From assembly GCF_003018255.1 (NCBI RefSeq), contig NZ_CP027440.1: a stretch of DNA of 64,000 bases; one strand, written 5' to 3'. Position numbers and translations under genes: made by a program. Source of the stretch: Escherichia coli (GTDB lineage: Bacteria; Pseudomonadota; Gammaproteobacteria; Enterobacterales; Enterobacteriaceae). Numbering within the stretch: position 1 is the first letter of the stretch; each line of letters opens with the position of its first letter. The notes beneath the pieces were generated by a model, which worked only from the letters and a program-made list of their open reading frames with translations, made no database searches and was not told the DNA's origin. Below, in pieces: positions 31,015 to 58,488 of the stretch.

Positions 31015-31128
31015 CAAAAAATGCTCTCCTTTATGATTTAAGAGTTATGGCGATGATACGGGGCTTTACCTCCCCGTAATATTGCGTTAACAGGCCGCTG
31101 ACGGCTTCGATCGTGAAGGAGAATAACA

Positions 31129-33169: not shown

Positions 33170-34372
33170 ATGGACCGCGTCCTTCATTTTGTACTGGCAC
33201 TTGCCGTTGTTGCGATTCTCGCACTGCTGGTAAGCAGCGACCGCAAAAAAATTCGTATCCGTTATGTTATTCAACTGCTTGTTATCGAAGTGTTACTGGC
33301 GTGGTTCTTCCTGAACTCCGACGTTGGTTTGGGCTTCGTGAAAGGCTTCTCCGAAATGTTTGAGAAACTGCTCGGATTTGCCAACGAAGGGACTAACTTC
33401 GTCTTTGGTAGCATGAATGATCAAGGCCTGGCATTCTTCTTCCTGAAAGTGCTGTGCCCAATCGTCTTTATCTCTGCGCTGATCGGTATTCTCCAGCACA
33501 TTCGCGTGTTGCCGGTGATTATCCGCGCAATTGGTTTCCTGCTCTCCAAAGTCAACGGTATGGGCAAACTGGAATCCTTTAACGCCGTCAGCTCCCTGAT
33601 TCTGGGTCAGTCTGAAAACTTTATTGCCTATAAAGATATCCTTGGCAAAATCTCCCGTAACCGTATGTACACCATGGCAGCAACGGCGATGTCCACCGTG
33701 TCGATGTCCATCGTTGGTGCATACATGACCATGCTGGAACCGAAATACGTCGTTGCAGCGCTGGTACTGAACATGTTCAGCACCTTTATCGTGCTGTCGC
33801 TGATCAACCCTTACCGTGTTGATGCCAGTGAAGAAAACATTCAGATGTCCAACCTGCACGAAGGTCAGAGCTTCTTCGAAATGCTGGGTGAATACATTCT
33901 GGCAGGTTTCAAAGTTGCCATTATCGTTGCCGCAATGCTGATCGGCTTTATCGCCCTGATCGCCGCGCTGAACGCACTGTTTGCTACCGTGACTGGCTGG
34001 TTTGGCTACAGCATCTCCTTCCAGGGCATCCTGGGCTACATCTTCTATCCGATTGCATGGGTGATGGGTGTTCCTTCCAGTGAAGCACTGCAAGTGGGCA
34101 GTATCATGGCGACCAAACTGGTTTCCAACGAGTTCGTTGCGATGATGGATCTGCAGAAAATTGCTTCCACGCTCTCTCCGCGTGCTGATGGCATCATCTC
34201 TGTGTTCCTGGTTTCCTTCGCTAACTTCTCATCAATCGGGATTATCGCAGGTGCAGTTAAAGGCCTGAATGAAGAGCAAGGTAACGTGGTTTCTCGCTTC
34301 GGTCTGAAACTGGTTTACGGCTCTACCCTGGTGAGTGTGCTGTCTGCGTCAATCGCAGCACTGGTGCTGTAA
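33170..34372 (+). CDS. nupC: Concentrative nucleoside:H+ symporter
   Basis: Start chosen at [20 protein letters not shown] (400 aa), with GGAG 8 nt upstream, rather than ATG at 33131. Confidence 0.93.
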
Positions 34373-34382
34373 GACCATACAT

Positions 34383-34413
34383 AAAAAAGCCGGGGATAAT
34401 TCCCCGGTTTTTT
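34383..34413. terminator. Bidirectional intrinsic terminator between nupC and pdeA
   Basis: AAAAAA-GCCGGGGATAATTCCCCGGC-TTTTTT; A-tract and T-tract flank the hairpin. Confidence 0.8.
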
Positions 34414-34420
34414 ACGCCTG

Positions 34421-36610
34421 TTAATCAGCTAATGGCTGCGGGCGACCAATCAAATACCCTTGCAGATATTGCACCCCGAGCTTATGCAATAGCGCCTGCT
34501 GCTGTTGCGTCTCGACAAACTCCGCGACCACACTCAATGACTTCGCTTTCGCCAGATCGGTAATTGATCTCACAATCATCGCATCCAGCGTGTTCGTGAC
34601 GATATCTTTCACAAAGACGCCATCAATTTTGATGATATCAGCCTGCAAACGCTTTAACCGTTCGTAGTTGGCATATCCGGTGCCAAAGTCATCAATCGCA
34701 ATCCGGAAACCAAACTTATGCAGCTGCTCGATGTTGTACATGCTGCTTTCTGCGTTAGAAAACGCCTGCTCCTCGGTGATCTCAAGAATGACTGCCTGCG
34801 GGGAGATGTGATAACGCTTAAACAGACGAATAATCCGCCCGGCAATATTCTTTTGCAGCAGCGTGAGCGGCATTAAATTGACTGAAAAGCGCGGGCCTTT
34901 TTTGTCGCAAGGATGTGTTGCCAGCCACTTCAACAGGGATTCCAGCACTTGCAAATCAAAACGCGCGCTAAGGTTAAACTGAGCAATAAGGGGCAGAAAC
35001 TTATCCGGGGTCATAATGCCGCCGTCATATTTCAGTCGCGCGAGGATCTCATCATAACCTTCACCCTCTTTGTTGCGAATTGGCTGGGCGTAGAGCAGCA
35101 AATCACCCTGATCTAACGCCGTACGAATGGTATTCAGCAATAGCACCTGTTTAGTGGTCTGCCCGGAAACCATCTCCTCTCTGCTATCCAGCGCCAGCAC
35201 ATGGTGATGTGCGCAGGATTGCTCCGCCAGCCAGCTTAACTGCCCCAACAAGGGTTGCAGGGTTTCCTGATTTCCATCAAAACGCCCCCAGGCAGCACCA
35301 TAGCCCATATCCAGCCCGGTATTGTTCCAGTGAATTTGCCGACTATTCAGGATGTTAACCATATGCTGGAGTCGCCCTTCCGTTTCCGGTCCACTCAGCA
35401 CTAACAGCAGTTCACTACCCGGCAATTGATACAACTTTTCGTTTTCCTGCATCAACGGCAGCAGCGTACGGTAAATTGATCGGATACAGTGAACGCGCAT
35501 CATTAAGCCGTAATGACGACTCATAAACTCAAGATTATCAATGCGCAGGCAGCAAAAACTCTTGCCCGCCTCTTGCTCCGGCGCTTGTTCTAACGCACGA
35601 AAGTTGGGTAGGAGCGTTAACGGATCGGTCAGCGCCTGCAAATGCCAGCGGCGATTAAGCCATTCACTGCGATGATAAATGCGCACCATATAGAGCAGGC
35701 AAACGCTAAAGGAAATCAGCACCGCGAGAATAAATGCCAGCGAATATTCGGTTAGTACCCCTTGCAAAAAGTTCTGGTTGTAATTCAGCAGGCAAAGCGT
35801 TGAAACAGCCCAGGTGAGATTTAAAAACGGATAGCGAAGCTTACCGACACCGAGGGTAAAGATGATAAAGAAAACAGGTACCAGATAACCAGCAATAAAG
35901 TCATTTTCATACGGTGTGCACATCAGAAGTAGCAGCACGCTAAGAGCTGCCAGCCAGCTTAAGGTAAATGCGCGTTTCTCTTTGCTCAACGACGGAGCGA
36001 TATCCCTACGCCACAATATCTGTGCAAAGTGGGGACTTACAATCATGCGGGCGAGATAGTAAAAAAGCATGTTGTAAATCAGCACTGCGGTGAAAAGGCT
36101 TAGCAAATCAACGACCGTGAAAATGGCATCCGCATCGCCGAAAAAGGTAGATATCTTTAGCGGAAAATCAAAGAAATTTCCCACAAGATACATGCTGCAT
36201 TTGATGCCAATCGGCGCCACCAAACCAAGCCAGAAAAGACGTTGCCAGACATATCGGCTGGTCAATCCATAACGCCAACGCGTCCCCAGCTGCCAGCGTA
36301 ATATTGCGCAGGCACACAACACCACAAACGTCTGGCTGCCGAGCATGACCGCGGTCTGTAAAAAAGAGAGATGAAAGTTCCACAGATTGGTGCAAAACAT
36401 CCCGCATAAAACGGGGACGACACCGCGCCAGCCAAAGATAAACAAGATTGACAGCATTACGCACAGTGGCATCCACGCCAGAAAGATATAACTGGAGTGG
36501 ATAATGGCAAGTGGCGAAATAAAACGGGATAGCTGAATAAGTACCACGGTGAGCGTAAACGCTAGTGTGAATATCTTGATATTTTTTATCAGGTTATGCT
36601 CCACAAACAT
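34421..36610 (-). CDS. pdeA: c-di-GMP phosphodiesterase (membrane sensor domain, degenerate GGDEF, EAL)
   Basis: Large N-terminal multi-TM region, C-terminal EAL-domain motifs (DDFGTGYANYERL); start chosen at MFVEHNLIKN (729 aa) rather than upstream ATG at 36670. Confidence 0.88.
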   Translation of the reverse strand: MFVEHNLIKNIKIFTLAFTLTVVLIQLSRFISPLAIIHSSYIFLAWMPLCVMLSILFIFGWRGVVPVLCGMFCTNLWNFHLSFLQTAVMLGSQTFVVLCACAILRWQLGTRWRYGLTSRYVWQRLFWLGLVAPIGIKCSMYLVGNFFDFPLKISTFFGDADAIFTVVDLLSLFTAVLIYNMLFYYLARMIVSPHFAQILWRRDIAPSLSKEKRAFTLSWLAALSVLLLLMCTPYENDFIAGYLVPVFFIIFTLGVGKLRYPFLNLTWAVSTLCLLNYNQNFLQGVLTEYSLAFILAVLISFSVCLLYMVRIYHRSEWLNRRWHLQALTDPLTLLPNFRALEQAPEQEAGKSFCCLRIDNLEFMSRHYGLMMRVHCIRSIYRTLLPLMQENEKLYQLPGSELLLVLSGPETEGRLQHMVNILNSRQIHWNNTGLDMGYGAAWGRFDGNQETLQPLLGQLSWLAEQSCAHHHVLALDSREEMVSGQTTKQVLLLNTIRTALDQGDLLLYAQPIRNKEGEGYDEILARLKYDGGIMTPDKFLPLIAQFNLSARFDLQVLESLLKWLATHPCDKKGPRFSVNLMPLTLLQKNIAGRIIRLFKRYHISPQAVILEITEEQAFSNAESSMYNIEQLHKFGFRIAIDDFGTGYANYERLKRLQADIIKIDGVFVKDIVTNTLDAMIVRSITDLAKAKSLSVVAEFVETQQQQALLHKLGVQYLQGYLIGRPQPLAD

Positions 36611-36817: not shown

Positions 36818-36893
<76 letters not shown>

Positions 36894-36932
36894 ACGATGC
36901 GTTTACGTACCAAATTTGCTGGGTGCAAAATT

Positions 36933-37008
<76 letters not shown>

Positions 37009-39948: not shown

Positions 39949-40024
39949 GGGTGATTAGCTCAGCTGGGAGAGCACCTCCCTTACAAGGAGGGGGTCGGCG
40001 GTTCGATCCCGTCATCACCCACCA
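39949..40024 (+). tRNA. valY: tRNA-Val (anticodon UAC)
   Basis: Identical third copy. Confidence 0.95.
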
Positions 40025-40028
40025 CTTC

Positions 40029-40104
40029 GGGTCGTTAGCTCAGTTGGTAGAGCAGTTGACTTTTAATCAATTGGTCGCAGGTTCGAATCCTGCACGACCC
40101 ACCA
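40029..40104 (+). tRNA. lysV: tRNA-Lys (anticodon UUU)
   Basis: 76-nt match to GGGTCGTTAGCTCAGTTGGTAGAGCAGTTGACTTTTAATCAATTGGTCGCAGGTTCGAATCCTGCACGACCCACCA, 4 nt after valY. Confidence 0.95.
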
Positions 40105-40108
40105 ATGT

Positions 40109-40135
40109 AAAAAAGCGCCCTAAAGGCGCTTTTTT
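40109..40135 (+). terminator. Intrinsic terminator of the val-lys tRNA operon
   Basis: AAAAGCGCC-CTAA-AGGCGC-TTTTTT immediately after lysV. Confidence 0.8.
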
Positions 40136-40214
40136 GCTATCTGCAATTTGCGAAATTGCCTGATGCGCTTCGCTTATCAGACCAACTATGTCCGGCAGTT
40201 CCCGTGCCTCTCAT

Positions 40215-41099
40215 CTACTGCGCCAACGCCGCCAGCAGTTTAACCAGCGCGGGCGTCACCTGCTGCGTTTCATAAACAATATATAAGTCTGCCGGGATGC
40301 GTTCTTTGAGCGGACGGAATATGACACCGGGCCAGTTCATCTGCGCGTAGCTGTCCGCTATCAATGTGATACCAATACCCATACTGACCATGGCGAGTAC
40401 CGTTTGCGGTTCATTAACTTCGCGAATAACAACCGGTGAAAATCCCACCTGCTGGCAAACTCGCTGCAAAAAATCCCAGTCAGTGTACACGGGCGGCATT
40501 GTAACGAAATACTCGTCACGTAGCGCTTCCAGCGGGACGGTGGAAAATGATGAGAGATGATGCTCTTCAGGCATCGCCACCAGAAACGCCGATTCATGCA
40601 ACCGTAAGCTGGTAAAACCAGTCGGTGGTTCTGTCGCCATTCGCCAGATCCCGGCATCAAGTTCGCGGCGTTCCAGCAAGGCCATTTGCATCGCAGGCAT
40701 CTTTTCGCGAAACAGAACTTCAACGTTAGGATTTTCTCTAAGGAATCGCCGCATAACCGGGCGCATCCGTCCCCACATTGCCGTTCCCACAACCCCGAGT
40801 TCAATCCGCCCTGCTTCTCCCCGACCTATTTGTTCAACCCGAGCCAATACATTATTTGCATTCACCAACAATCGACGCGATTCTTCCATCAAGATTTTGC
40901 CCGCGTGTGTCAGTACGACGCTGCGCGAATGGCGAATAAAAAGCTGCGTGCCGAGTTGATTTTCCAGCTCTTTAATATGAATGCTGAGCGGAGGCTGAGA
41001 CATATTTAAACGCGCTGCTGCGCGACCAAAATGCAACTCTTCCGCTACGGCAAGAAAATAACGGAGCAACTTAAGATCTGTTCTGTATACGCGTTCCAT
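40215..41099 (-). CDS. xapR: LysR-family transcriptional activator of xapAB
   Basis: N-terminal LysR HTH (LKLLRYFLAVAEELHFGRAAARLNMSQPPLS); start at MERVYRTDL (294 aa), with an in-frame ATG at 41114 as an alternative. Confidence 0.88.
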   Translation of the reverse strand: MERVYRTDLKLLRYFLAVAEELHFGRAAARLNMSQPPLSIHIKELENQLGTQLFIRHSRSVVLTHAGKILMEESRRLLVNANNVLARVEQIGRGEAGRIELGVVGTAMWGRMRPVMRRFLRENPNVEVLFREKMPAMQMALLERRELDAGIWRMATEPPTGFTSLRLHESAFLVAMPEEHHLSSFSTVPLEALRDEYFVTMPPVYTDWDFLQRVCQQVGFSPVVIREVNEPQTVLAMVSMGIGITLIADSYAQMNWPGVIFRPLKERIPADLYIVYETQQVTPALVKLLAALAQ

Positions 41100-41350
41100 A
41101 ATTAAGTGCTCCATATAATAAATACATCGTATTAAATTATCATGGCATAAAGTATTTCACCACCAGATATCCGACATACATAAACACAATGGATAATATA
41201 CCCGGCAATACATTTGGAACAGGAATAGGTAATCGCACGATTGTAAACAAAGCACCAATGCCAAAACCAACGCCAGAAGAAAATAAAATATCTTTCACTA
41301 ATTAACCTTTATCATAAAAGCAGCCCCAAGGAACAGAGCTGCGAATCCTT

Positions 41351-42607
41351 TTAATGTGTAACTGAACGATGCGTTATCTTTTCAGGGTCATGGTTATATT
41401 TAAACCCAAAGAAAAATATCACTGCGAGGAAAAGAGCATACCCTGCAAACATCAGCCAAATGGTATGCCAATCTTTTACGCCATCCACCGAGAAGTAATC
41501 CACTGCCATACCGCTCAGAATCGAGCCAACCCATGCGCCGACGCCATTTACCATCGTCATAAAAAGGCCCTGGGCGCTGGCACGAATGCTGGAATCAACT
41601 TCCTGTTCGACAAAGACCGAACCAGAAATATTGAAGAAATCGAATGCACAACCGTAAACAATCATCGACAGCAACAGCAAAATAAACCCGGTTGGTGATG
41701 GATCGCCATAGGCAAAGAAGCCAAAGCGCAGCGTCCACGCCACCATACTCATCAGCATGACGGTTTTAATACCGAAACGCTTCAAAAAGAACGGTATCGT
41801 CAGAATGAAACCGACTTCAGCCATCTGTGAAACTGACAGTAAAATGGACGGGTATTTCACCACGAAGCTATCAGCAAACTCAGGATTACGGGCGAAATCA
41901 TGCAGGAACGGGTTGCCAAAAACGTTGGTAATTTGCAGCACCGCACCCAGCATCATGGCGAAGAGGAAAAAGATAGCCATGCGTGGATTTTTAAACAGCA
42001 CGAAGGCATCCAGACCCAGCTTGCTGGCAAGCGATGTAGTCGCTTTTTTCTCCGCAACCGGAATCTTCGGCAAAGTCAGCGCATAAGCCGACAGCAGCAA
42101 TGACGCACCGGACGCGATATACAGCTGCAGACTACTCAATTCCAGATGCAGCAGGCTTACTGCCCACATGGCGACAATGAACCCCACCGTACCAAAAACG
42201 CGAATGGGCGGGAAAGCGGTCACCGGGTCAAGCCCTGCCTGGGCAAGACAGGAATAAGAGACGCTGTTCGATAACGCAATAGTCGGCATAAACGCCATCG
42301 CATTGACTAACATCACCCAAAACATCATATCCGGATCAGTTACGGATGCCGCATAAAAAAGTACGCCCGCACACACCAGGTGACACAGCATGTATGCACG
42401 TTCTGCACGCAGCCATTTGTCTGCGATGATCCCCATTATACCAGGCATAATAATCGCGGCGATCCCTTTGGAACTGTAAACCATGCCAACATTAGCGCCG
42501 GTGAAATGAAGGGTATTAATCATGTAAGAACCGAGGGTAACCAGCCAGCTCCCCCAGATAAAATATTGCAAAAAGGACATTACCTTTAAGCGCAAAGCGA
42601 TGCTCAT
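41351..42607 (-). CDS. xapB: Xanthosine/nucleoside:H+ symporter (MFS)
   Basis: 418-aa polytopic ORF upstream of xapA on the same strand. Confidence 0.92.
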   Translation of the reverse strand: MSIALRLKVMSFLQYFIWGSWLVTLGSYMINTLHFTGANVGMVYSSKGIAAIIMPGIMGIIADKWLRAERAYMLCHLVCAGVLFYAASVTDPDMMFWVMLVNAMAFMPTIALSNSVSYSCLAQAGLDPVTAFPPIRVFGTVGFIVAMWAVSLLHLELSSLQLYIASGASLLLSAYALTLPKIPVAEKKATTSLASKLGLDAFVLFKNPRMAIFFLFAMMLGAVLQITNVFGNPFLHDFARNPEFADSFVVKYPSILLSVSQMAEVGFILTIPFFLKRFGIKTVMLMSMVAWTLRFGFFAYGDPSPTGFILLLLSMIVYGCAFDFFNISGSVFVEQEVDSSIRASAQGLFMTMVNGVGAWVGSILSGMAVDYFSVDGVKDWHTIWLMFAGYALFLAVIFFFGFKYNHDPEKITHRSVTH

Positions 42608-42667
42608 AATCGTTTCCTTGTCGCATCATATGGCCTCACTCAGTAAGGCCGTTTATTGTTGTTTTAC

Positions 42668-43501
42668 TCAGGCAATTTTGCGCAGAAAGCCGCAAATAAG
42701 ATTAATAAAGTTTTGCTTTGAGAGTTCCGCTGCTGCCAGCGTTTGGGCATGAGAAAGCTTCACGTCACTCAGACCTTCCGCCATGTTGGTAATCGCAGAG
42801 ACCGCAACGACTTTAAGTTCGCAATGGCGAGCTGAAATAACCTCAGGCACCACAGACATACCAACAACATCCCCACCAATAATTTGCATCATACGAATTT
42901 CCGCCGCAGTCTCGAAATTCGGCCCCGGATACGAGACGAACACGCCCTCCGTCAGAGGGAACCCCTCTTCTTTCGCCACTTTTTGTAACAGTGCGCGGTA
43001 TTCCGCATCGTAGGCATTCGCCAGCGAGAAGAAGCGCTCACCAAAACGTTCATCATTAAGACCCACCATCGGCGTTCCCGGCATGGTGTTGATGTGATCT
43101 TTCAATGCGACCAGACTGCCGGCCCCCACTTCAGGACGCAGTGAGCCAGCCGCATTGGTGCAGAACAGCAACTCGCAGCCCAGCAACTTAAAGGTACGGA
43201 TTGCATCCGTCATGATGGTCATCCCACGACCTTCGTAGAAATGTCCGCGACCTTTCATGCACGCCACTGGCACCCCCTGGAGATACCCCAGCACCAGCTC
43301 ACCCGCATGACCGTGTACGGTACTTACCGGGAACCCAGGCAGCTTTTCGTAGGAAATTGCGACCGCGTTCTCAATCTGATCGGCCAGCGCGCCCAGCCCG
43401 GAACCTAACATAAAGGCCACTCGTGGCGTGAAATCAGGTTTATAAGTCTTGATAATATCTACGCAATACAGTGGGTTATGAGAAAACTGAGCCTGAGACA
43501 T
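42668..43501 (-). CDS. xapA: Purine nucleoside phosphorylase II (xanthosine phosphorylase)
   Basis: 277-aa ORF of the PNP/MTAP family. Confidence 0.93.
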   Translation of the reverse strand: MSQAQFSHNPLYCVDIIKTYKPDFTPRVAFMLGSGLGALADQIENAVAISYEKLPGFPVSTVHGHAGELVLGYLQGVPVACMKGRGHFYEGRGMTIMTDAIRTFKLLGCELLFCTNAAGSLRPEVGAGSLVALKDHINTMPGTPMVGLNDERFGERFFSLANAYDAEYRALLQKVAKEEGFPLTEGVFVSYPGPNFETAAEIRMMQIIGGDVVGMSVVPEVISARHCELKVVAVSAITNMAEGLSDVKLSHAQTLAAAELSKQNFINLICGFLRKIA

Positions 43502-43749
43502 ATATATCCTTTTTTTGTAGGGTGGAATCTAACGCCTTTTTATAACGAGATTGCCCTACCTCATACCAATACACTTTTTTCATGTATCCGATAGTTATTC
43601 GATATCGATATATTTATATTTTTTCACTATTAATAGGCTGAAAAAACTGTATTGGTACTCTCCTTTCCCTTGCATTAACAATATGCCGCTTTTAATCAAC
43701 CTTTTTATTAAGCAATCAACTAATAACGATCGGCATAGGGAATTATGCT

Positions 43750-44514
43750 ATGAAAAAACATCTTTTTACTCTGACACTCTCTTCTGTATTGGCGATACCA
43801 GCAGTATCCCATGCAGAATTTAAAGGCGGTTTTGCTGATATAGGTATTCATTATCTTGACTGGACTAGCAGAACCACTGAGAAATCGTCGACCAAATCAC
43901 ACAAAGATGATTTTGGATATCTGGAACTGGAAGGCGGCGCTAACTTTAGTTGGGGAGAAATGTACGGGTTCTTCGACTGGGAAAACTTTTATAATGATCG
44001 TCATGATAAACCGGGTAGCGAGCAGCGTTATACCTTTAAAAATACCAACCGTATTTACCTGGGTGACACCGGATTTAATCTCTACTTGCATGCGTATGGC
44101 ACCTACGGTTCTGCGAATCGCGTGAATTTCCATGACGATATGTTCCTTTACGGTATCGGCTACAATTTCACCGGCAGCGGTTGGTGGTTCAAACCGTTCT
44201 TTGCAAAACGCTATACAGACCAAACCTATTATACCGGCGATAACGGTTATGTCGCCGGTTGGGTTGCAGGTTACAGCTTTATGCTGGGCAGTGAGAAATT
44301 CACCCTCACCAACTGGAACGAGTACGAGTTTGATCGTGATGCCACCTACGCGGCAGGTAATGGCGGCAAAGAAGGTCTGAACGGTGCCGTCGCACTTTGG
44401 TGGAATGCAACTTCACACATCACCACAGGAATTCAGTATCGTTATGCGGATGACAAACTGGGCGAAGATTTTTACCAGGATGCAATAATCTACTCCATCA
44501 AATTTAATTTCTGA
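43750..44514 (+). CDS. yfeN: Putative outer-membrane beta-barrel protein
   Basis: 254-aa ORF; signal peptide (MKKHLFTLTLSSVLAIPAVSHA), aromatic-rich alternating pattern, C-terminal Phe (IKFNF). Confidence 0.82.
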   Translation: MKKHLFTLTLSSVLAIPAVSHAEFKGGFADIGIHYLDWTSRTTEKSSTKSHKDDFGYLELEGGANFSWGEMYGFFDWENFYNDRHDKPGSEQRYTFKNTNRIYLGDTGFNLYLHAYGTYGSANRVNFHDDMFLYGIGYNFTGSGWWFKPFFAKRYTDQTYYTGDNGYVAGWVAGYSFMLGSEKFTLTNWNEYEFDRDATYAAGNGGKEGLNGAVALWWNATSHITTGIQYRYADDKLGEDFYQDAIIYSIKFNF

Positions 44515-44551
44515 TTGATTACTGCCGGGGCTCCCGGCAGTATGAATAGCT

Positions 44552-45478
44552 CTATATCTGATACAGCGGATCCCCTTCCCGCCCAGCCATTAGCGCACGG
44601 CCCTGGCCTCGTACCACTTCCCATAACGCTTGTGCGGCGGTGGAAAGTGAACGGTTCTTCCTGCGCACCAGCATCAACTGGCGTTCCACCACCGGCGTAA
44701 TGCGCTTTACCACCAGCGGGCTACCTTCAGGTAACGGCAGCGCCAGTGCGGGAAGAATACTAATGCCGATGCCTGCGGCTACCATCGGGAACAGCGTCGC
44801 CGGATGACCAATCTCCTGCACAATATTCGCCTGAATACCGTTGCGCGCCAGAGCTGCGTCAATCAGCGGTCGGCTGCCTGACGCGTAATCCTGCAACACC
44901 AATTTCGCTCCCTGTAATGCCTGCCAGGGTACATAATCTTCCGCGGCTAAAGCGCTATCGCGATGGCAAAGCAAGAAGAAAGGCTCGGAAAGAATCGCTT
45001 CACATTGCAGATCGCTCACTGGGCCTGGATCGATGACGATGCCAAAATCGACATCTCCCTGGCGAATACTTTCCATCACCCACTGCTGCGGACGATCGTG
45101 CAGGACAAACTGAATATCGGGATAGCGGCGATGGCTTTCAGCAATGCATTGCGGAATAAGATGCGCGGAAATGGTCTGGCTGGCAGCGACCCGAACTTTT
45201 CCGCTCAGTTGTTGCCCCATACGCCCGGTATCGCGCAACGTGCTGTTAAGTTCATCCAGCAGTCGCTCAAGACGCAAAGCCAACTGCTGCCCTGCATCTG
45301 TAAGCACCACTTCACGCGTGGTTCTGTCCAGCAGGCGAACACCAGTATGATTTTCCAGCTCCTTCACACTGTGACTTACTGCCGACTGACTCAGGCCGAT
45401 ACGCTCTCCTGCACGACTAAAACTTTTCTCCTGCGCTACTGTGACGAAAACCTTTAATTGTTTTAAAGAATAATTCAT
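44552..45478 (-). CDS. yfeR: LysR-family transcriptional regulator
   Basis: 308-aa ORF with N-terminal LysR HTH ([34 protein letters not shown]). Confidence 0.88.
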
Positions 45479-45567
45479 CTGTTTTTTTCATGAATGGATG
45501 CAATAAATCAATTTTATTTCTCAAACTGGAAGAAGCACAATAGAACCATCGATCATCTGGAGTCTTT

Positions 45568-46566
45568 ATGAAACTTTTTCGTATCCTCGATCCTTTCACC
45601 TTAACCCTGATCACGGTGGTGTTGCTGGCCTCTTTCTTTCCGGCCAGAGGCGATTTCGTCCCCTTCTTTGAAAATCTGACCACTGCAGCGATTGCTCTGC
45701 TGTTCTTTATGCACGGCGCGAAGTTGTCGCGTGAGGCGATTATTGCTGGCGGTGGGCACTGGCGACTGCATTTGTGGGTAATGTGCAGCACCTTCGTATT
45801 GTTTCCGATTCTGGGCGTGCTGTTTGCCTGGTGGAAACCGGTAAATGTCGACCCGATGCTCTACTCCGGTTTTCTCTACTTGTGCATTCTCCCCGCTACC
45901 GTGCAGTCTGCAATCGCCTTTACTTCAATGGCGGGCGGTAACGTCGCGGCAGCGGTTTGTTCTGCGTCAGCATCCAGCCTGTTGGGGATTTTCCTTTCAC
46001 CATTGCTGGTTGGTCTGGTGATGAATGTTCACGGTGCGGGAGGCAGCCTTGAGCAGGTCGGTAAAATTATGCTGCAATTGCTACTGCCGTTTGTGTTGGG
46101 GCATCTTTCCCGGCCGTGGATTGGTGACTGGGTGTCGCGCAATAAAAAATGGATTGCGAAAACTGACCAGACGTCCATTCTGTTGGTGGTTTATACGGCA
46201 TTCAGCGAAGCCGTCGTTAACGGTATCTGGCACAAAGTTGGCTGGGGATCATTGCTGTTTATCGTGGTGGTCAGTTGCGTTCTTCTGGCTATCGTGATTG
46301 TAGTTAACGTCTTTATGGCACGCCGACTGGGCTTCAATAAGGCAGATGAAATTACTATCGTCTTTTGTGGTTCGAAAAAGAGTCTGGCAAATGGCATCCC
46401 GATGGCAAACATTCTGTTCCCCACATCGGTGATCGGTATGATGGTGCTGCCCCTGATGATTTTCCATCAGATCCAATTGATGGTCTGTGCGGTGCTGGCG
46501 CGTCGATACAAACGCCAGACCGAACAGTTACAGGCGCAGCAGGAAAGCAGCGCCGATAAAGCTTAA
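45568..46566 (+). CDS. yfeH: Putative BASS-family (bile acid:sodium symporter-like) transporter
   Basis: 332-aa polytopic ORF divergent from yfeR. Confidence 0.85.
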   Translation: MKLFRILDPFTLTLITVVLLASFFPARGDFVPFFENLTTAAIALLFFMHGAKLSREAIIAGGGHWRLHLWVMCSTFVLFPILGVLFAWWKPVNVDPMLYSGFLYLCILPATVQSAIAFTSMAGGNVAAAVCSASASSLLGIFLSPLLVGLVMNVHGAGGSLEQVGKIMLQLLLPFVLGHLSRPWIGDWVSRNKKWIAKTDQTSILLVVYTAFSEAVVNGIWHKVGWGSLLFIVVVSCVLLAIVIVVNVFMARRLGFNKADEITIVFCGSKKSLANGIPMANILFPTSVIGMMVLPLMIFHQIQLMVCAVLARRYKRQTEQLQAQQESSADKA

Positions 46567-46781
46567 AGCGGACGCTTCAGGGGCTGGACCAGTTGCGTCA
46601 GCCCCTCGGTTTTAATCAGCAGCGTGATTTGCATTAGCTCACCGAGCTTCCCTGCCGGGAACTCATCTTTGCGGGCAAACCACAGCAGATACTCCTCCGG
46701 CAGGTCGATTAAGCGACGCCCTTTGTACTTGCCAAACGGCATTATCGTATTGGCTATTTCAATCAGCTGCTCTTTTTCCAT
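46563..46781 (-). CDS. ypeB: Small conserved protein downstream of ligA
   Basis: Start chosen at MEKEQLIEIANTIMPFGKYKG (72 aa), just downstream of the ligA stop; the longer track ORF from 46874 would overlap ligA. Confidence 0.75.
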   Translation of the reverse strand: MEKEQLIEIANTIMPFGKYKGRRLIDLPEEYLLWFARKDEFPAGKLGELMQITLLIKTEGLTQLVQPLKRPL

Positions 46782-46782
46782 C

Positions 46783-48807
<2,025 letters not shown>

Positions 48808-48812
48808 TCAAT

Positions 48813-48838
48813 GCTAAAAACCCCCGACAAGCGGGGGT
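48813..48838 (-). terminator. Intrinsic terminator after zipA
   Basis: Minus strand: CCCCCGC-TTGT-CGGGGG followed by TTTTT. Confidence 0.7.
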
Positions 48839-48868
48839 TCGAAGAGGAGTTAATTTGCCTTAAGTGTA

Positions 48869-49867
48869 TCAGGCGTTGGCGTCTTTGACTTCGCGGATGA
48901 TGTCCTGGTACTCGCGCAATTTCTGCGGAGTCATCATACGGCGCTGATCGTCAAGAACAACACCGCCCACTTCATCGGCAATATGCTGCGCAGATTGCAG
49001 CATCAGCTTGAAGTTCTGCAGCTCGTCACCGTAAGACGGTACCTGCATAAAGATAGTGACACCCGGAGTAGTGAAATCCTTCATTTCAGGATCAAAGGTT
49101 CCCGGTTTCACCATATTCGCCAGGCTAAATAACGCCGGGCCGCTGCCATCCGGGCTAAGATGACGATGGTAAATATTCATATCGCCAAAAATGAAGCCCG
49201 CTTGTTGAATGCTGTTAAGAAGCAGTTCACCGTTTAGCTCGCTACCGTGATGCGCCGCGACGTTCATGATAATCACCGCTTCTTTGCGCTTCGGTTTATC
49301 CATAACTGGAGCCGGTTCCGCTACAGGCTCAGGCTGTGGTGCCGCTACGGGTTCTGCAGGCTGGAAAGCCTGTTGTGCCGGTTGCGGTGCTGAATGCACT
49401 GGCTGCGGCGCTGGCGCGACCTGTGGCGAAACTGGCTGCTGCAACGGCTGTTCAGGCTGCGGCTGATAGGCAGGCTGCTGCACGGGTTGCTGCACCGGCT
49501 GCGCTGGACGCGGAGCATGTTGCGGCGGTACCTGCGCTTCAGGCGGCTGCTGGACCGGTTGACGCGGCTGCGCAGACGCATAAGGCGGTTGGTACTGGTG
49601 TTGCGGCGACGGACGAGCAGCCTCATGCTCCTGGGCGTTAGCCGGGGCATGATTCACGCGGTGAACTCGAACCTCACCAACGCCCTCATCATCTTCGACA
49701 TCCTCGTCATAAGAATCGTCGTCACGTTTTGACTTCATTCGTTTTAATGGCCGATCGCGGAACATAGAAGATCGTTCTTTACGGCTGGTCCAGAAACCAT
49801 GTACCAGTAAAGCGATTATGGCGATCGCGCCAACAATGATTAATATCAGACGCAAATCCTGCATCAT
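48869..49867 (-). CDS. zipA: Cell-division protein ZipA (FtsZ membrane anchor)
   Basis: N-terminal TM ([22 protein letters not shown]), charged region, long P/Q-rich linker, C-terminal FtsZ-binding domain; start taken at MMQDL rather than upstream ATG at 49918. Confidence 0.9.
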
Positions 49868-50096
49868 TATATTCTCTGTTGTTCTAACACCTTGCCACCA
49901 CGGCAAACATTTACTCACTAAGAGTATTTGCCGATTACCTCAAGTGCAAGTGCACTATTAACTTTCACAGCACAAAGATAGATGAAATCGTGCTTTTTGC
50001 TGTTTTTTCGAACATATCCTAACTGTCCATTGCGCAATTACCCGGTAAAATACGCAGAATTTTCCTGGGATTGGTCAAAAGGAGCTCATCCTGATT

Positions 50097-50858
50097 ATGG
50101 TTTCATCATTCACATCTGCCCCACGCAGCGGTTTTTACTATTTTGCGCAAGGCTGGAAGCTCGTCTCGCAACCTGGGATTCGGCGTTTCGTTATTTTACC
50201 GCTGCTGGTCAATATTTTGTTGATGGGGGGCGCATTCTGGTGGCTCTTTACGCAACTCGATGTCTGGATCCCGACTCTCATGAGTTATGTTCCGGACTGG
50301 TTACAATGGCTGAGCTATCTGTTGTGGCCTCTGGCTGTCATCTCTGTGCTGTTAGTGTTTGGCTATTTCTTCTCAACGATTGCTAACTGGATTGCCGCTC
50401 CGTTCAATGGTTTATTGGCTGAACAACTGGAAGCACGATTGACTGGCGCTACACCGCCAGATACCGGGATTTTCGGTATCATGAAAGATGTGCCGCGAAT
50501 CATGAAACGCGAATGGCAAAAATTTGCCTGGTATCTGCCGCGCGCAATTGTATTGCTAATTCTTTACTTCATCCCTGGTATTGGGCAAACCGTCGCGCCG
50601 GTACTGTGGTTCCTGTTTAGCGCCTGGATGTTAGCCATCCAGTATTGCGATTACCCCTTCGATAACCACAAAGTGCCGTTTAAAGAGATGCGCACCGCCC
50701 TGCGCACACGCAAAATCACCAATATGCAGTTTGGTGCTTTAACCAGCCTGTTTACGATGATCCCTCTGCTTAATCTGTTCATCATGCCCGTTGCCGTTTG
50801 TGGTGCGACGGCGATGTGGGTCGATTGCTATCGCGATAAACACGCGATGTGGCGGTAA
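50097..50858 (+). CDS. cysZ: Sulfate transporter CysZ
   Basis: 253-aa membrane ORF divergent from zipA, upstream of cysK. Confidence 0.92.
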
Positions 50859-51042
50859 CAATCTACCGGTTATTTTGTAAACCGCTTGTGTGAAACAGGG
50901 GTGGCTTATGCCGCCCCTTATTCCATCTTGCATGTCATTATTTCCCTTCTGCATATAGATATGCTAAATCCTTACTTCCGCATATTCTCTGAGCGGGTAT
51001 GCTACCTGTTGTATCCCAATTTCATACAGTTAAGGACAGGCC

Positions 51043-52014
51043 ATGAGTAAGATTTTTGAAGATAACTCGCTGACTATCGGTCACACGCCGCTGGTTCGCC
51101 TGAATCGCATCGGTAACGGACGCATTCTGGCGAAGGTGGAATCTCGTAACCCCAGCTTCAGCGTTAAGTGCCGTATCGGTGCCAACATGATTTGGGATGC
51201 CGAAAAGCGCGGCGTGCTGAAACCAGGCGTTGAACTGGTTGAACCAACCAGCGGTAATACCGGGATTGCACTGGCCTATGTCGCTGCCGCTCGCGGTTAC
51301 AAACTCACCCTGACTATGCCAGAAACCATGAGTATTGAACGCCGCAAGCTGCTGAAAGCGTTAGGTGCAAACCTGGTGCTGACCGAAGGTGCTAAAGGCA
51401 TGAAAGGCGCAATCCAAAAAGCAGAAGAAATTGTCGCCAGCAATCCAGAGAAATACCTGCTGCTGCAACAATTCAGCAATCCGGCAAACCCTGAAATTCA
51501 CGAAAAAACCACCGGTCCGGAGATCTGGGAAGATACCGACGGTCAGGTTGATGTATTTATTGCTGGCGTTGGGACTGGCGGTACGCTGACTGGCGTCAGC
51601 CGCTACATTAAAGGCACCAAAGGCAAGACTGATCTTATATCTGTCGCCGTTGAGCCAACCGATTCTCCAGTTATCGCCCAGGCGCTGGCAGGTGAAGAGA
51701 TTAAACCTGGTCCGCATAAAATTCAGGGTATTGGCGCTGGTTTTATCCCGGCTAACCTTGATCTCAAGCTGGTCGACAAAGTCATTGGCATCACCAATGA
51801 AGAAGCCATTTCTACCGCACGTCGTCTGATGGAAGAAGAAGGTATTCTTGCTGGTATCTCTTCTGGAGCAGCTGTTGCTGCGGCGTTGAAACTACAAGAA
51901 GATGAAAGCTTTACCAATAAGAATATTGTGGTTATTCTGCCGTCATCGGGTGAGCGTTATTTAAGCACTGCATTGTTTGCCGATCTTTTCACTGAGAAAG
52001 AACTGCAACAGTAA
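51043..52014 (+). CDS. cysK: O-acetylserine sulfhydrylase A (cysteine synthase A)
   Basis: 323-aa ORF; PLP-lysine motif ([11 protein letters not shown]); paralogous to cysM in this window. Confidence 0.96.
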
Positions 52015-52036
52015 TGCCAGCTTGTAAAAAATGCGT

Positions 52037-52064
52037 AAAAAAGCACCTTTTCAGGTGCTTTTTT
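52037..52064 (+). terminator. Intrinsic terminator after cysK
   Basis: AAAAGCACC-TTTTCAG-GGTGC-TTTTTT. Confidence 0.8.
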
Positions 52065-52397
52065 GTGGCCTGCTTCAAACTTTCGCCCCTCCTGGCATTG
52101 ATTCAGCCTGCCGGAACTGGTATTTAACCAGACTAATTATTTTGATGCGCGAAATTAATCGTTACAGGAAAAGCCAAAGCTGAATCGATTTTATGATTTG
52201 GTTCAATTCTTCCTTTAGCGGCATAATGTTTAATGACGTACGAAACGTCAGCGGTCAACACCCGCCAGCAATGGACTGTATTACGCTCTTCGTGCGTCGC
52301 GTCTGTTAAAAACTGGCGCTAACAATACAGGCTAAAGTCGAACCGCCAGGCTAGACTTTAGTTCCACAACACTAAACCTATAAGTTGGGGAAATACA

Positions 52398-52655
52398 ATG
52401 TTCCAGCAAGAAGTTACCATTACCGCTCCGAACGGTCTGCACACCCGCCCTGCTGCCCAGTTTGTAAAAGAAGCTAAGGGCTTCACTTCTGAAATTACTG
52501 TGACTTCCAACGGCAAAAGCGCCAGCGCGAAAAGCCTGTTTAAACTGCAGACTCTGGGCCTGACTCAAGGTACCGTTGTGACTATCTCCGCAGAAGGCGA
52601 AGACGAGCAGAAAGCGGTTGAACATCTGGTTAAACTGATGGCGGAACTCGAGTAA
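52398..52655 (+). CDS. ptsH: Phosphocarrier protein HPr
   Basis: 85-aa ORF; active-site His15 context ([11 protein letters not shown]) and Ser46 region. Confidence 0.97.
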
Positions 52656-52699
52656 TTTCCCGGGTTCTTTTAAAAATCAGTCACAAGTAAGGTAGGGTT

Positions 52700-54427
52700 A
52701 TGATTTCAGGCATTTTAGCATCCCCGGGTATCGCTTTCGGTAAAGCTCTGCTTCTGAAAGAAGACGAAATTGTCATTGACCGGAAAAAAATTTCTGCCGA
52801 CCAGGTTGATCAGGAAGTTGAACGTTTTCTGAGCGGTCGTGCCAAGGCATCAGCCCAGCTGGAAACGATCAAAACGAAAGCTGGTGAAACGTTCGGTGAA
52901 GAAAAAGAAGCCATCTTTGAAGGGCATATTATGCTGCTCGAAGATGAGGAGCTGGAGCAGGAAATCATAGCCCTGATTAAAGATAAGCACATGACAGCTG
53001 ACGCAGCTGCTCATGAAGTTATCGAAGGTCAGGCTTCTGCCCTGGAAGAGCTGGATGATGAATACCTGAAAGAACGTGCGGCTGACGTACGTGATATCGG
53101 TAAGCGCCTTCTGCGCAACATCCTGGGCCTGAAGATTATCGACCTGAGCGCCATTCAGGATGAAGTCATTCTGGTTGCCGCTGATCTGACGCCGTCCGAA
53201 ACCGCACAGCTGAACCTGAAGAAGGTGCTGGGTTTCATCACCGACGCGGGTGGCCGTACTTCCCACACCTCTATCATGGCGCGTTCTCTGGAACTGCCTG
53301 CTATCGTGGGTACCGGTAGCGTCACCTCTCAGGTGAAAAATGACGACTATCTGATTCTGGATGCCGTAAATAATCAGGTTTACGTCAATCCAACCAACGA
53401 AGTTATTGATAAAATGCGCGCTGTTCAGGAGCAAGTGGCTTCTGAAAAAGCAGAGCTTGCTAAACTGAAAGATCTGCCAGCTATTACGCTGGACGGTCAC
53501 CAGGTAGAAGTGTGCGCTAACATTGGTACGGTTCGTGACGTTGAAGGTGCAGAGCGTAACGGCGCTGAAGGCGTTGGTCTGTATCGTACTGAGTTCCTGT
53601 TCATGGACCGCGACGCGCTGCCCACTGAAGAAGAACAGTTTGCTGCTTACAAAGCAGTGGCTGAAGCGTGTGGCTCGCAGGCGGTTATCGTTCGTACCAT
53701 GGACATCGGCGGCGACAAAGAGCTGCCATACATGAACTTCCCGAAAGAAGAGAACCCGTTCCTCGGCTGGCGCGCTATCCGTATCGCGATGGACCGTAAA
53801 GAGATCCTGCGCGATCAGCTCCGCGCTATCCTGCGTGCCTCGGCTTTCGGTAAATTGCGCATTATGTTCCCGATGATCATCTCTGTTGAAGAAGTACGTG
53901 CACTGCGCAAAGAGATCGAAATCTACAAACAGGAACTGCGCGACGAAGGTAAAGCGTTTGACGAGTCAATTGAAATCGGCGTAATGGTGGAAACACCGGC
54001 TGCCGCAACAATTGCACGTCATTTAGCCAAAGAAGTTGATTTCTTTAGTATCGGCACCAATGATTTAACGCAGTACACTCTGGCAGTTGACCGTGGTAAT
54101 GATATGATTTCACACCTTTACCAGCCAATGTCACCGTCCGTGCTGAACTTGATCAAGCAAGTTATTGATGCTTCTCATGCTGAAGGCAAATGGACTGGCA
54201 TGTGTGGTGAGCTTGCAGGCGATGAACGTGCTACACTTCTGTTGCTGGGGATGGGTCTGGACGAATTCTCTATGAGCGCCATTTCTATCCCGCGCATTAA
54301 GAAGATTATCCGTAACACGAACTTCGAAGATGCGAAGGTGTTAGCAGAGCAGGCTCTTGCTCAACCGACAACGGACGAGTTAATGACGCTGGTTAACAAG
54401 TTCATTGAAGAAAAAACAATCTGCTAA
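52700..54427 (+). CDS. ptsI: PTS Enzyme I (PEP-protein phosphotransferase)
   Basis: 575-aa ORF; phospho-His region ([15 protein letters not shown]) and PEP-binding domain. Confidence 0.97.
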
Positions 54428-54467
54428 TCCACGAGATGCGGCCCAATTTACTGCTTAGGAGAAGATC

Positions 54468-54977
54468 ATGGGTTTGTTCGATAAACTGAAATCTCTGGTT
54501 TCCGACGACAAGAAGGATACCGGAACTATTGAGATCATTGCTCCGCTCTCTGGCGAGATCGTCAATATCGAAGACGTGCCGGATGTCGTTTTTGCGGAAA
54601 AAATCGTTGGTGATGGCATTGCTATCAAACCAACTGGAAACAAAATGGTCGCGCCTGTAGACGGCACCATTGGTAAAATCTTTGAAACCAACCACGCGTT
54701 CTCTATCGAATCTGATAGCGGCGTTGAACTGTTCGTCCACTTCGGTATCGACACCGTTGAACTGAAAGGCGAAGGCTTCAAGCGTATTGCTGAAGAAGGT
54801 CAGCGCGTGAAAGTTGGCGATACTGTCATTGAATTTGATCTGCCGCTGCTGGAAGAGAAAGCCAAGTCTACCCTGACTCCGGTTGTTATCTCCAACATGG
54901 ACGAAATCAAAGAACTGATCAAACTGTCCGGTAGCGTGACTGTGGGTGAAACCCCGGTTATCCGCATCAAGAAGTAA
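54468..54977 (+). CDS. crr: Glucose-specific PTS EIIA (EIIA-Glc)
   Basis: 169-aa ORF, last gene of ptsHI-crr. Confidence 0.97.
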
Positions 54978-54991
54978 TTCTTGCCGCAGTG

Positions 54992-55020
54992 AAAAATGGC
55001 GCCCATCGGCGCCATTTTTT
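54992..55020. terminator. Bidirectional intrinsic terminator shared by crr and pdxK
   Basis: AAAAATGGCGCC-CATC-GGCGCCATTTTTT; the T-tract overlaps the pdxK stop codon (55019-55021 on minus). Confidence 0.8.
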
Positions 55021-55870
55021 ATGCTTCCGCCAGCGGCGGCAAAATCAATTCATCGCTCTCATGCTGCTGGGTGTAGCGCATCACTTCCAGTACGCGCAAC
55101 CCCGCACGGTGCACCGCATCGTTTAACGCCTTCCCTTTCAGCAAACCACTGATAAGCTGAGCACAAAACAGGTCGCCAGTCCCTTTCAGGTCGGTTTTTA
55201 CCCGTGAATGGGAAATGACATTCACGCTGTCGGCACTGACCACCACCACCTGCATCTCCTGATTTTCTTCATTACCGGAGGCGCTGGTAATCACCACCCA
55301 TTTTAATGTGTCTGAAAGCAGACTTTTTGCGGCAGCAATGGCACTGTCGAGATCGCGGCAATTTTTACCGGTCAGGATTTCCAGCTCAAAAATATTGGGG
55401 GTAATTCCCTGCGCCAGCGGCAGTAAATATTGTCGATACGCCTCGGGAAGGTCAGGTTTGACATAAATTCCGCTATCAATATCGCCAATCACTGGATCGA
55501 CCATGATCAATAGGTCAGGATGGTCTTTGCGTAGCGCAGTCAGCCACTCGGCAAGGATTTTGATTTGCGATGACGTTCCCATATAGCCCGTGGTTACAGC
55601 ACGAAGTTGGCGCAACGCATCACGCTCCTGAAGCGCACGCAAATAGCCGCTAAACCATTCGTCCGGAATCGCACCACCGTAGAAAGTGTCATAATGCGGT
55701 GTATTGCTCAGCAATACCGTCGGCACGGCAAAGACATTCAGGCCGTTCTGTTTTATAGCAGGCACCGCAATGCTGTTGCCTACGCTGCCGTACACTACCT
55801 GCGACTGCACGGCGACGATATCCGCCTGCAATGCCCTGCTCTTATCGTTAAACAACAACAAACTACTCAT
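55019..55870 (-). CDS. pdxK: Pyridoxal/pyridoxine/pyridoxamine kinase
   Basis: 283-aa ORF of the ribokinase-like PdxK family. Confidence 0.93.
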
Positions 55871-55883
55871 TTAATTTTTTCTC

Positions 55884-55949
<66 letters not shown>

Positions 55950-55974
55950 CACAAAACAAGGATAAGGTAATTCA

Positions 55975-56343
55975 ATGAAGAAAATCATTTGTCTGGTCAT
56001 TACGCTGCTAATGACACTCCCCGTTTACGCGAAGTTAACTGCCCATGAAGAAGCCCGTATCAACGCCATGCTGGAGGGATTAGCACAGAAAAAGGATTTG
56101 ATATTTGTGCGTAACGGCGATGAACATACCTGCGATGAAGCGGTTTCCCACCTGCGTCTGAAGCTCGGCAATACCCGTAACCGCATTGACACTGCCGAGC
56201 AGTTTATTGATAAGGTAGCCTCGTCGTCATCGATTACCGGGAAGCCGTATATCGTGAAGATGCCCGGTAAAAGCGATGAGAACGCACAACCTTTTTTACA
56301 TGCGCTGATTGCGCAGACGGATAAAACGGTGCCTGCGCAATAA
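55975..56343 (+). CDS. yfeK: Small secreted protein of unknown function
   Basis: 122-aa ORF with signal peptide ([19 protein letters not shown]); divergent from pdxK. Confidence 0.82.
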
Positions 56344-56345
56344 TC

Positions 56346-57257
56346 TTAAATCCCCGCCCCCTGGCTAAAATGCTCTTCCCCAAACACCCCGGTAGAAAGG
56401 TAGCGATCGCCGCGATCGCAGATGATCGCCACAACCACCGCGCCGGGGTTAGCTTTTGCCACGCGCAGTGCTCCGGCAACCGCGCCGCCGGAGCTGACGC
56501 CACAGAATATTCCTTCCCGCACTGCCAGCTCGCGCATGGTGTTTTCCGCATCGCGCTGATGAATATCCAGCACTTCATCCACCAGCGAAGCGTTGAAAAT
56601 CCCTGGCAGATATTCCGCAGGCCAGCGGCGAATGCCGGGAATGCTACTGCCCTCTTCCGGCTGCAGGCCAACAATGGTCACCGGTTTGGATTGTTCGCGC
56701 ATAAAGCGTGACACACCGGTAATGGTGCCGGTCGTCCCCATACTGGAGACAAAATGCGTAATGCGCCCGCCAGTTTGCTGCCAGATTTCCGGCCCGGTGG
56801 TGGTGTAATGGGCGAAGGGATTATCAGGATTATTGAACTGATCGAGCAGCTTTCCTTCACCACGATTGGCCATCTCCAGCGCCAGATCGCGCGCGCCTTC
56901 CATGCCCTGCTCTTTGGTGACAAGAATCAGTTCCGCACCGTATGTCAGCATCGCTGCACGGCGCTCCTGGCTCATGTTGTCGGGCATCAGCAATTTCATG
57001 CGATAGCCTTTAAGCGCGGCAATCATTGCCAGCGCAATGCCGGTGTTACCACTGGTGGCTTCGATCAGCACGTCACCCGGTTTAATTTCCCCGCGCTTTT
57101 CCGCCTCAACGATCATCGAAAGTGCCGCACGATCTTTTACCGAACCTGCCGGGTTATTGCCTTCCAGTTTCAACCAGACTTCACTGCCGTTATTCGGCCC
57201 CATTCGCTGCAACTTCACCAGAGGCGTATTGCCAATTGTTTGTTCTAATGTACTCAC
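56346..57257 (-). CDS. cysM: O-acetylserine/thiosulfate sulfhydrylase B (cysteine synthase B)
   Basis: 303-aa ORF; PLP-lysine motif (NPAGSVKDRAA); ends ...HFSQGAGI. Confidence 0.95.
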   Translation of the reverse strand: MSTLEQTIGNTPLVKLQRMGPNNGSEVWLKLEGNNPAGSVKDRAALSMIVEAEKRGEIKPGDVLIEATSGNTGIALAMIAALKGYRMKLLMPDNMSQERRAAMLTYGAELILVTKEQGMEGARDLALEMANRGEGKLLDQFNNPDNPFAHYTTTGPEIWQQTGGRITHFVSSMGTTGTITGVSRFMREQSKPVTIVGLQPEEGSSIPGIRRWPAEYLPGIFNASLVDEVLDIHQRDAENTMRELAVREGIFCGVSSGGAVAGALRVAKANPGAVVVAIICDRGDRYLSTGVFGEEHFSQGAGI

Positions 57258-57280
57258 GATCTATGTCCATACGTGGTGTT

Positions 57281-57317
57281 GCCTGATGCGACGCTTGCGC
57301 GTCTTATCAGGCCTACA
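57281..57317. repeat. REP element between cysM and cysA
   Basis: GCCTGATGCGACGCTTGCGCGTCTTATCAGGCCTACA, the same family as the units at 31480-31590. Confidence 0.85.
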
Positions 57318-57390
57318 GGTTACAAACCTTGCCATTAAAAAGCCCGGATCGCGGGAAGCGCCTCCGGGCGTTTAACATTCACTCAACCTA

Positions 57391-58488
57391 TCAGGCGCTT
57401 TGTGCGAGAGCAAGTTCCTCATCGCGGGTTTCAATACGCTCGTCGCCGTTATACAGCCGCGCATGTTGCAGACCAACGAATAAACGCTCGCCACGCTGCG
57501 GGGCATCGTCGCCATGCATCACAACCGTCAGCGGTTCGTTGTACCACCCCAGCGGCTGCACGACTAATTGGGTGTAGTGGCCTTTCGGGCTGGCTTCCAG
57601 TACCTGTACCGGCAGCGGCGAATCGAGGCTGGTACGGCGGCTGATATCCACTTCCCACGGGCGCAGGAAGAGATCCACCGGCCCCTGATAAGCAGGTGTG
57701 TAGCCCAGCGGCCAGCGATGTGCGCCAACATGGAACTGCCCGCCGCGAATGGTTCCCTGCAGGCGGTTCACTTCGCCCATAAATTCGAGCACAAAGCGGG
57801 TCGCTGGTTCGCGCCATACCTGATCCGGCGCATCAGCCTGCTCGATATTGCCCTGGCTCATCACCACTACACGATCGGCTACTTCGGTCGCTTCTTCCTG
57901 GTCATGGGTCACGAATACGCTGGTAAATTTCAGTTCTTCATGCAGTTGACGCAACCAGCGACGCAGCTCTTTACGCACCTGCGCATCCAGCGCGCCAAAC
58001 GGTTCATCAAGCAGCAGAATTTGCGGTTCCACAGCCAGCGCACGCGCCAGCGCCACGCGCTGTTTCTGCCCGCCGGAAAGCTGTGCCGGATAACGATCCG
58101 CCAGATGCGCAAGCTGGACCATCTCCAGCAATTTTGTCACTTTCGCTTTGATGGCTGCGGCATTCGGGCGCTCGCGACGCGGCAGCACCGTCAGGCCGAA
58201 AGCGATATTGTCGAATACCGTCATATGGCGGAACAGCGCGTAATGCTGAAACACGAAACCGACTTTACGATCGCGCGCATGCAGGCGGCTGACGTCGGTG
58301 CCGTGGAAGCGAATATGCCCGCTGGTTTGATGCTCCAGCCCGGCGATAATCCGCAGCAGCGTGGTTTTCCCGGAACCGGACGGCCCCAGCAACGCGACCA
58401 TCTGACCAGAAGGAATATCCAGCGAGATATCGTTCAGCACCTGGGTGCGACCAAAAGACTTCTTAATATTGGCAATCTCAATGCTCAT
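57391..58488 (-). CDS. cysA: Sulfate/thiosulfate ABC transporter ATP-binding subunit
   Basis: 365-aa ORF; Walker A (GPSGSGKTT), ABC signature ([15 protein letters not shown]), Walker B (LLLDEPF). Confidence 0.96.

Follow-up and report, generated by a model that had tools for sequence, protein, structure and literature searches.

An unoccupied IS186 target in the predicted shared terminator of nupC and pdeA in an Escherichia coli genome

The convergent genes nupC and pdeA are separated, in the Escherichia coli sequence analyzed here, by a short hairpin that we interpret as a terminator shared by the two genes and whose stem is a target for the insertion sequence IS186. With high confidence, we conclude that this allele represents the ancestral state and was never occupied by the element, whereas elsewhere in E. 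coli several independent insertions have taken place at the same position. The analysis started from an earlier note on this DNA, which singled out the hairpin as an empty IS186-type target; that the site has been hit repeatedly, in either orientation, across E. coli goes beyond that note. The data on this strain consist of a 64-kb stretch of its genome, which is denoted the window throughout, and all coordinates refer to it unless another sequence is named.

Results

Anatomy of the nupC-pdeA spacer

The nupC gene, which encodes a nucleoside permease, spans positions 33170..34372 of the plus strand, with the TAA stop codon at 34370-34372, and pdeA (also known as yfeA), which encodes a diguanylate cyclase/phosphodiesterase-family protein, spans 34421..36610 of the minus strand, with the stop codon at 34421-34423. 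The nupC assignment relies on the end of the open reading frame together with the annotation of near-identical genomes, and the start at 33170 was deduced from the 1,203-bp nupC annotated in these genomes, which shares the stop; the extent of pdeA corresponds to the 2,190-bp gene annotated in near-identical genomes. Both gene names were adopted from annotated genomes that are 99.7-100% identical to the window across the region. Upstream of pdeA, at 36821-37008 on the minus strand, there are two tandem tRNA genes, which are tRNA-Ala in the near-identical genomes (alaX and alaW in MG1655).

The two convergent genes are separated by a spacer of 48 bp (34373-34420), and the hairpin within it is intact, in agreement with the earlier note. 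The hairpin and its flanks occupy 34383..34413 on both strands, as delineated from the sequence, terminator-like calls and folding, and read AAAAAAGCCGGGGATAATTCCCCGGTTTTTT, that is, AAAAAA, GCCGGGG, ATAATT, CCCCGG and TTTTTT. The A6 tract lies approximately 10-11 nt past the nupC stop codon, and the T6 tract lies approximately 7-8 nt from the pdeA stop codon. The stem-loop itself, CCGGGG-ATAATT-CCCCGG (34390..34407, defined by folding), comprises six G-C pairs and an A-T pair that closes a TAAT loop. The spacer folds into a 13-pair hairpin of -20.8 kcal/mol on the plus strand (z = -5.7) and reaches -23.7 kcal/mol on the minus strand (z = -5.0); on either strand, none of the 200 shuffled sequences folded as well. 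A consensus scan called a terminator-like site at the hairpin on both strands, with 7-13 pairs and a U6 run after the stem on each strand.

The primary role of the hairpin is most likely that of a bidirectional intrinsic (Rho-independent) terminator common to nupC and pdeA. This assignment, which we infer from sequence and folding, draws on the stable G+C-rich hairpin, after which a U-run comes on either transcribed strand, and on its location just downstream of the two convergent stop codons: with the A6 and T6 tracts flanking the G+C-rich stem-loop, each of the convergent transcripts would end as a hairpin followed by a U-run. The hairpin had been described in the earlier note as the nupC terminator, an attribution that holds for nupC but leaves out pdeA, given that the structure is predicted to serve both genes. 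Transcript data from K-12 are uninformative with respect to the intact hairpin, which is split in that strain. In a comparison with Rfam, no family passed its threshold at the hairpin; what matched there was terminator-like noise, with Leu_leader scoring 25 bits where 50 are required. A small RNA or another hidden element in the spacer was considered and rejected; the hairpin and the tracts account for all 48 bp.

The consensus target of IS186 is 5'-GGGG(N6/N7)CCCC-3' (Lee et al. 2016, PMC5009759). The stem of the nupC-pdeA hairpin holds an exact match to the N6 form of this target (34392..34405, GGGGATAATTCCCC), as recognized in the earlier note, and this is the sole GGGG-N6-CCCC site in the window. 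The same consensus reportedly also goes back to saiSree et al. 2001, as cited by Lee et al. The 10 bp that border IS186 on both sides in occupied genomes, GGATAATTCC, are found at 34394..34403 in a single copy, that is, the site is empty. By itself, the G4-N6-C4 motif is within chance expectation: one instance was found in the 64-kb window compared to 0.5 expected, and at least one was present in 41 of the 100 shuffled sequences; the N7 form, GGGG-N7-CCCC, is absent from the window. The significance of the motif comes from the fact that orthologous sites are indeed occupied by IS186. A GGGG-N8-CCCC sequence, GGGGCTTTACCTCCCC, is located at 31060-31075; it is probably not an IS186 target because an 8-nt spacing is outside the published N6/N7 range.

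The occupied allele in K-12 and its distribution in E. coli

In the genome of E. coli K-12 MG1655 (NC_000913.3), 'insertion sequence:IS186C', which includes insL3 (b2394), is annotated at 2514273..2515617, between nupC (b2393) and pdeA (b2395), and the same nupC-IS186-pdeA arrangement is present in BW2952; the earlier note had given this arrangement in MG1655 correctly. The left junction in K-12 joins AAAAAAGCCGGGGATAATTCC to CATAAGCGCTAACTTAAGGGTTG, and the right junction joins CAACCCTTAAGTTAGCGCTTATG to GGATAATTCCCCGGTTTTTTTACGCC. Comparison of the alleles indicates that two things alone set the filled one apart from the one in the window: the 1,339-bp IS186 and the repetition of GGATAATTCC. 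The values of 1,339 bp for the element and 10 bp for the direct repeat apply when the element ends are set at the 23-bp terminal inverted repeats; in the MG1655 annotation, IS186 is drawn as 1,345 bp. The length of the duplication is ambiguous, 4-12 bp according to where the element ends are drawn, because the G/C arms of the target match the bases that adjoin the terminal repeats of the element; Lee et al. 2016 consider only the 6-7 bp core to be the duplicated part (PMC5009759). The nupC-pdeA hairpin thus combines the consensus sequence of an IS186 target, the presence of the element at the orthologous position in other strains and a target duplication in the filled alleles.

In the occupied alleles, IS186 splits the hairpin such that the half-stem at each junction pairs over just three G-C pairs, and on the nupC side, the half-stem is not followed by a U-run. 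With the hairpin split into such half-stems, the intrinsic terminator of both nupC and pdeA is predicted to be lost in K-12 and other occupied strains, and transcription should enter the element.

Examination of 5,424 complete E. coli genomes that contain the locus, a comparison that the earlier note had proposed along with that to K-12, showed that the site is contiguous (empty) in about 4,460 genomes, carries IS186 in the K-12 orientation in 472 and in the opposite orientation in 465, and is in another state in about 27, a number obtained by subtraction for a class that was sampled rather than enumerated. About 17% (about one in six) of the complete E. coli genomes, K-12 among them, are filled here, which overstates the occupancy in natural isolates, the count of 472 being inflated by many laboratory derivatives of K-12. 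IS186 is present in 2,217 of 5,426 genomes, and roughly four in ten of these IS186 carriers have this particular site filled.

The sampled loci of the remaining class include E. coli Stbl4, in which the IS186 at the nupC-pdeA site has itself received an IS2, so that the insertions are nested, and E. coli ST2747, in which the whole of nupC is deleted and pdeA, annotated as a longer gene, has an altered 3' end; this deletion could have started at the hot spot. In E. coli 720632, IS186 is in the opposite orientation with a point mutation in the right-hand repeat (GGATAATTCT), and an ISKpn26-family element truncates pdeA about 400 bp beyond the IS186 site. The nupC-pdeA junction also occurs, at 96.8% identity, in a 198-kb non-chromosome record of FDAARGOS_1288 (NZ_CP070008.1), where the pdeA side is annotated merely as 'EAL domain-containing protein'; this record may represent a piece of the chromosome or else a large plasmid with core genes. 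A literature search for IS186 together with nupC retrieved no paper.

History of the site in the lineage of the window

The empty site could have never received IS186 or could have lost it precisely, two possibilities between which the earlier note did not choose; the evidence assembled here favors the first and disfavors the second. Within the 64-kb window, the 23-bp terminal inverted repeat of IS186, CATAAGCGCTAACTTAAGGGTTG, was not found with up to 3 mismatches allowed, and a blastn search with IS186 produced no match, so the window contains neither an inverted repeat nor the transposase-gene homology by which a copy or a remnant of the element would be recognized. A scar of target-site duplication, which the earlier note suggested looking for, is absent as well: the window has GGATAATTCC in a single copy.

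Over most of positions 10000-40000, the window matches the genome of strain JNE23-011 with 100% identity. The four nearest relatives, JNE23-011, JNE112863, 200164 and E04, are all contiguous at the site (with the junction read directly only in 200164), and so are more distant neighbors. The chromosomes of JNE23-011, JNE112863 and E04 are free of IS186, and 200164 has four chromosomal copies, yet its nupC-pdeA site is empty. The presence of IS186 in these relatives was assessed using a chimeric query that combined a distant, highly discriminating segment with IS186; a chimera of the pdeA flank and IS186 was unsuited to the nearest relatives because occupied genomes outranked them, and it served to show the haplotype diversity of the occupied alleles. 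Beyond about 40 kb (40000-58000), the identity between the window and JNE23-011 falls to 97.2-99.5% in patches, for example at 44501-46000 and 56501-58000, which suggests recombination tracts.

All sampled E. coli alleles share the hairpin sequence GCCGGGGATAATTCCCCGG without variation, and it recurs in Escherichia sp. E1V33 and in E. whittamii. These two Escherichia provided the only informative matches to the 19-mer in the scan of genome contigs; the other matches were discarded, most of them being chance occurrences in unrelated phyla, and one, in Chimaeribacter, being in an unrelated context. Because the intact hairpin is invariant in the sampled E. coli and is found in other Escherichia, we take the empty site to be the ancestral state. 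At the E. whittamii locus (9249-9445), a 20-bp form of the hairpin, GCCGGGGATAATTCCCCGGC, is present twice, 177 bp apart, and the two copies flank a 157-bp insert with two REP-like palindromes (BIME-like). Judging from the single-copy locus of E1V33, the entire terminator hairpin seems to have been duplicated by an insertion, leaving one putative copy for each of the convergent genes.

If IS186 were excised precisely at its 10-bp direct repeats, the sequence left behind, without a trace of the event, would be just the one observed, and the four chromosomal copies in the close relative 200164 indicate that the element circulates in the clade. Nevertheless, a history in which the lineage of the window once carried IS186 at this position and regained the hairpin by precise excision is highly improbable. 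The site is empty in all four nearest relatives, three of which are devoid of chromosomal IS186, as well as in the more distant neighbors, and other Escherichia species retain an intact hairpin. Furthermore, a footprint allele, with GGATAATTCC doubled in the absence of the element, was not found among about 4,440 empty genomes, and mutation-accumulation lines yielded a single IS excision (of an IS3) against 758 insertions over about 2.2 million generations (PMC5009759). The empty relatives, the intact hairpin in other Escherichia and the lack of a footprint make it much more likely that the site never received IS186 in the lineage of the window than that the element was precisely lost, and we consider the former very probable.

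Recurrent insertion at the same position

Seven occupied loci were read at their junctions, and in all seven, the insertion point and the 10-bp repeat are identical. These loci represent at least three flank haplotypes, with T7, T8 or C-T6 immediately adjoining the element, and 8-19 SNPs per 800 bp distinguish their flanks. K-12 and EH10-18-47 have T7 flanks in common and carry the element in opposite orientations; in CDE2901-yvys, T8 adjoins the element, and per 800 bp, the two flanks differ from those of K-12 at 15 and 8 positions (SNPs); strains ST-131 and EC5931 have C-T6 and flanks that differ from K-12 by 19 and 9 SNPs; in STEC307, the element is in the opposite orientation, and 4 SNPs set the adjoining nupC allele apart. 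Many isolates have the K-12 flank haplotype without the element. Taken together, these data are best explained by a recurrent IS186 hot spot, with several independent insertions in both orientations and at least four hits.

Conceivably, the motif could be incidental to the terminator stem, and the occupied alleles could all stem from a single ancient insertion disseminated by descent and homologous recombination, in which case there would be no true recurrent target; the chance frequency of the motif in the window and the K-12 flank haplotype common to many occupied genomes are compatible with such a scenario, which we nonetheless consider extremely improbable. The two orientations are nearly equal in number (472 and 465), and the three T-tract variants are located within 10 bp of the element, on flanks that have diverged on both sides, including those of the strain named ST-131; the import of the element by recombination would therefore require crossovers a few bases away from its ends. 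In particular, only 4 bp separate the right-hand repeat from the start of the distinguishing T-tract, which makes the spread of a single insertion by recombination implausible. Moreover, in experiments, single G4-N6-C4 sites were repeatedly hit by IS186 in either orientation (PMC5009759), as expected of the recurrent hot spot proposed here.

Discussion

The insertion of IS186 into the nupC-pdeA spacer can be pictured as follows. The transposase, a member of the IS4 family, would recognize the GGGG and CCCC arms of the stem; staggered cuts within the stem, made as the element lands, would split the hairpin; and repair of the gaps would duplicate the intervening bases, leaving GGATAATTCC on either side of the element. 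The steps of recognition, cutting and repair are modeled on the published behavior of IS186, and the repeat itself comes from the comparison of filled and empty alleles.

The annotation of IS186C in MG1655 and the target consensus of the element are already on record, and the additions made here are modest, namely, the population counts and the evidence of repeated, orientation-neutral hits at this locus. At its nupC-pdeA junction, the strain keeps the ancestral arrangement, in which the predicted common terminator is intact, a result of little importance except for the record. Whether IS186 is present at this locus, and in which orientation, could be used as a simple marker for strain typing, and the locus provides a natural example of repeated, orientation-neutral targeting by IS186. 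If the strain acquires the element, or already carries it, the hairpin is a predictable spot for a new insertion.

Lee et al. raised the question why target sites so rare and so specific are kept (PMC5009759). A tentative answer, which we regard as possible although on balance doubtful, is that IS186 hot spots persist because the G4-N6-C4 sequence doubles as the stem of functional 3'-end hairpins that are subject to constraint. If this is the case, the host would be unable to mutate the site away, whereas IS186 would gain a gene-sparing landing pad between genes, and the question of retention would be answered. The proposal draws on the nupC-pdeA site, whose predicted bidirectional terminator does not vary among the sampled E. 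coli and other Escherichia, and on the three IS186 copies of K-12, all of which are located in 3'-end hairpins.

Comparison with known terminators and IS186 sites

The nupC-pdeA hairpin resembles the bidirectional Rho-independent terminators located between convergent genes in that a G+C-rich stem-loop has an A-run on one side and a T-run on the other and is recognized as terminator-like on either strand; on the plus strand, the allele in the window lacks an extra G-C pair that is found in the O157:H7 allele (GGC-T6). The experimental IS186 hot spots described by Lee et al., in fimA, menC and the lon promoter (PMC5009759), are different loci; the nupC-pdeA locus could not be scored in the K-12 lines because it is already occupied there.

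The closest counterpart is the IS186C site of MG1655, which is at the orthologous position and has the same hairpin sequence, with flanks that are near-identical: per 800 bp, approximately 15 SNPs separate the two sequences next to nupC and approximately 6 next to pdeA; the window differs in lacking the 1,339-bp element and the second GGATAATTCC and in having a T6 tract in place of the T7 of K-12. The sites of the other two MG1655 copies, IS186A (at hokC) and IS186B (at hokE), share with it the 6-bp G+C stems, the 6-nt loops and the location at gene 3' ends. The respective hairpins, GCGGGG-ATCACT-CCCCGC and GCGGGG-AGTAAT-CCCCGC, have 10-bp repeats with the same geometry as those at the nupC-pdeA site; they are at other loci, have other loop sequences and are not followed by clear T-runs. 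Each directly follows the 3' end of a toxin gene, hokC or hokE, and all three K-12 targets conform to GGGGA-N4-TCCCC. All three IS186 copies of MG1655 reside in hairpins of the form (G/C)CGGGG-N6-CCCCG(C/G).
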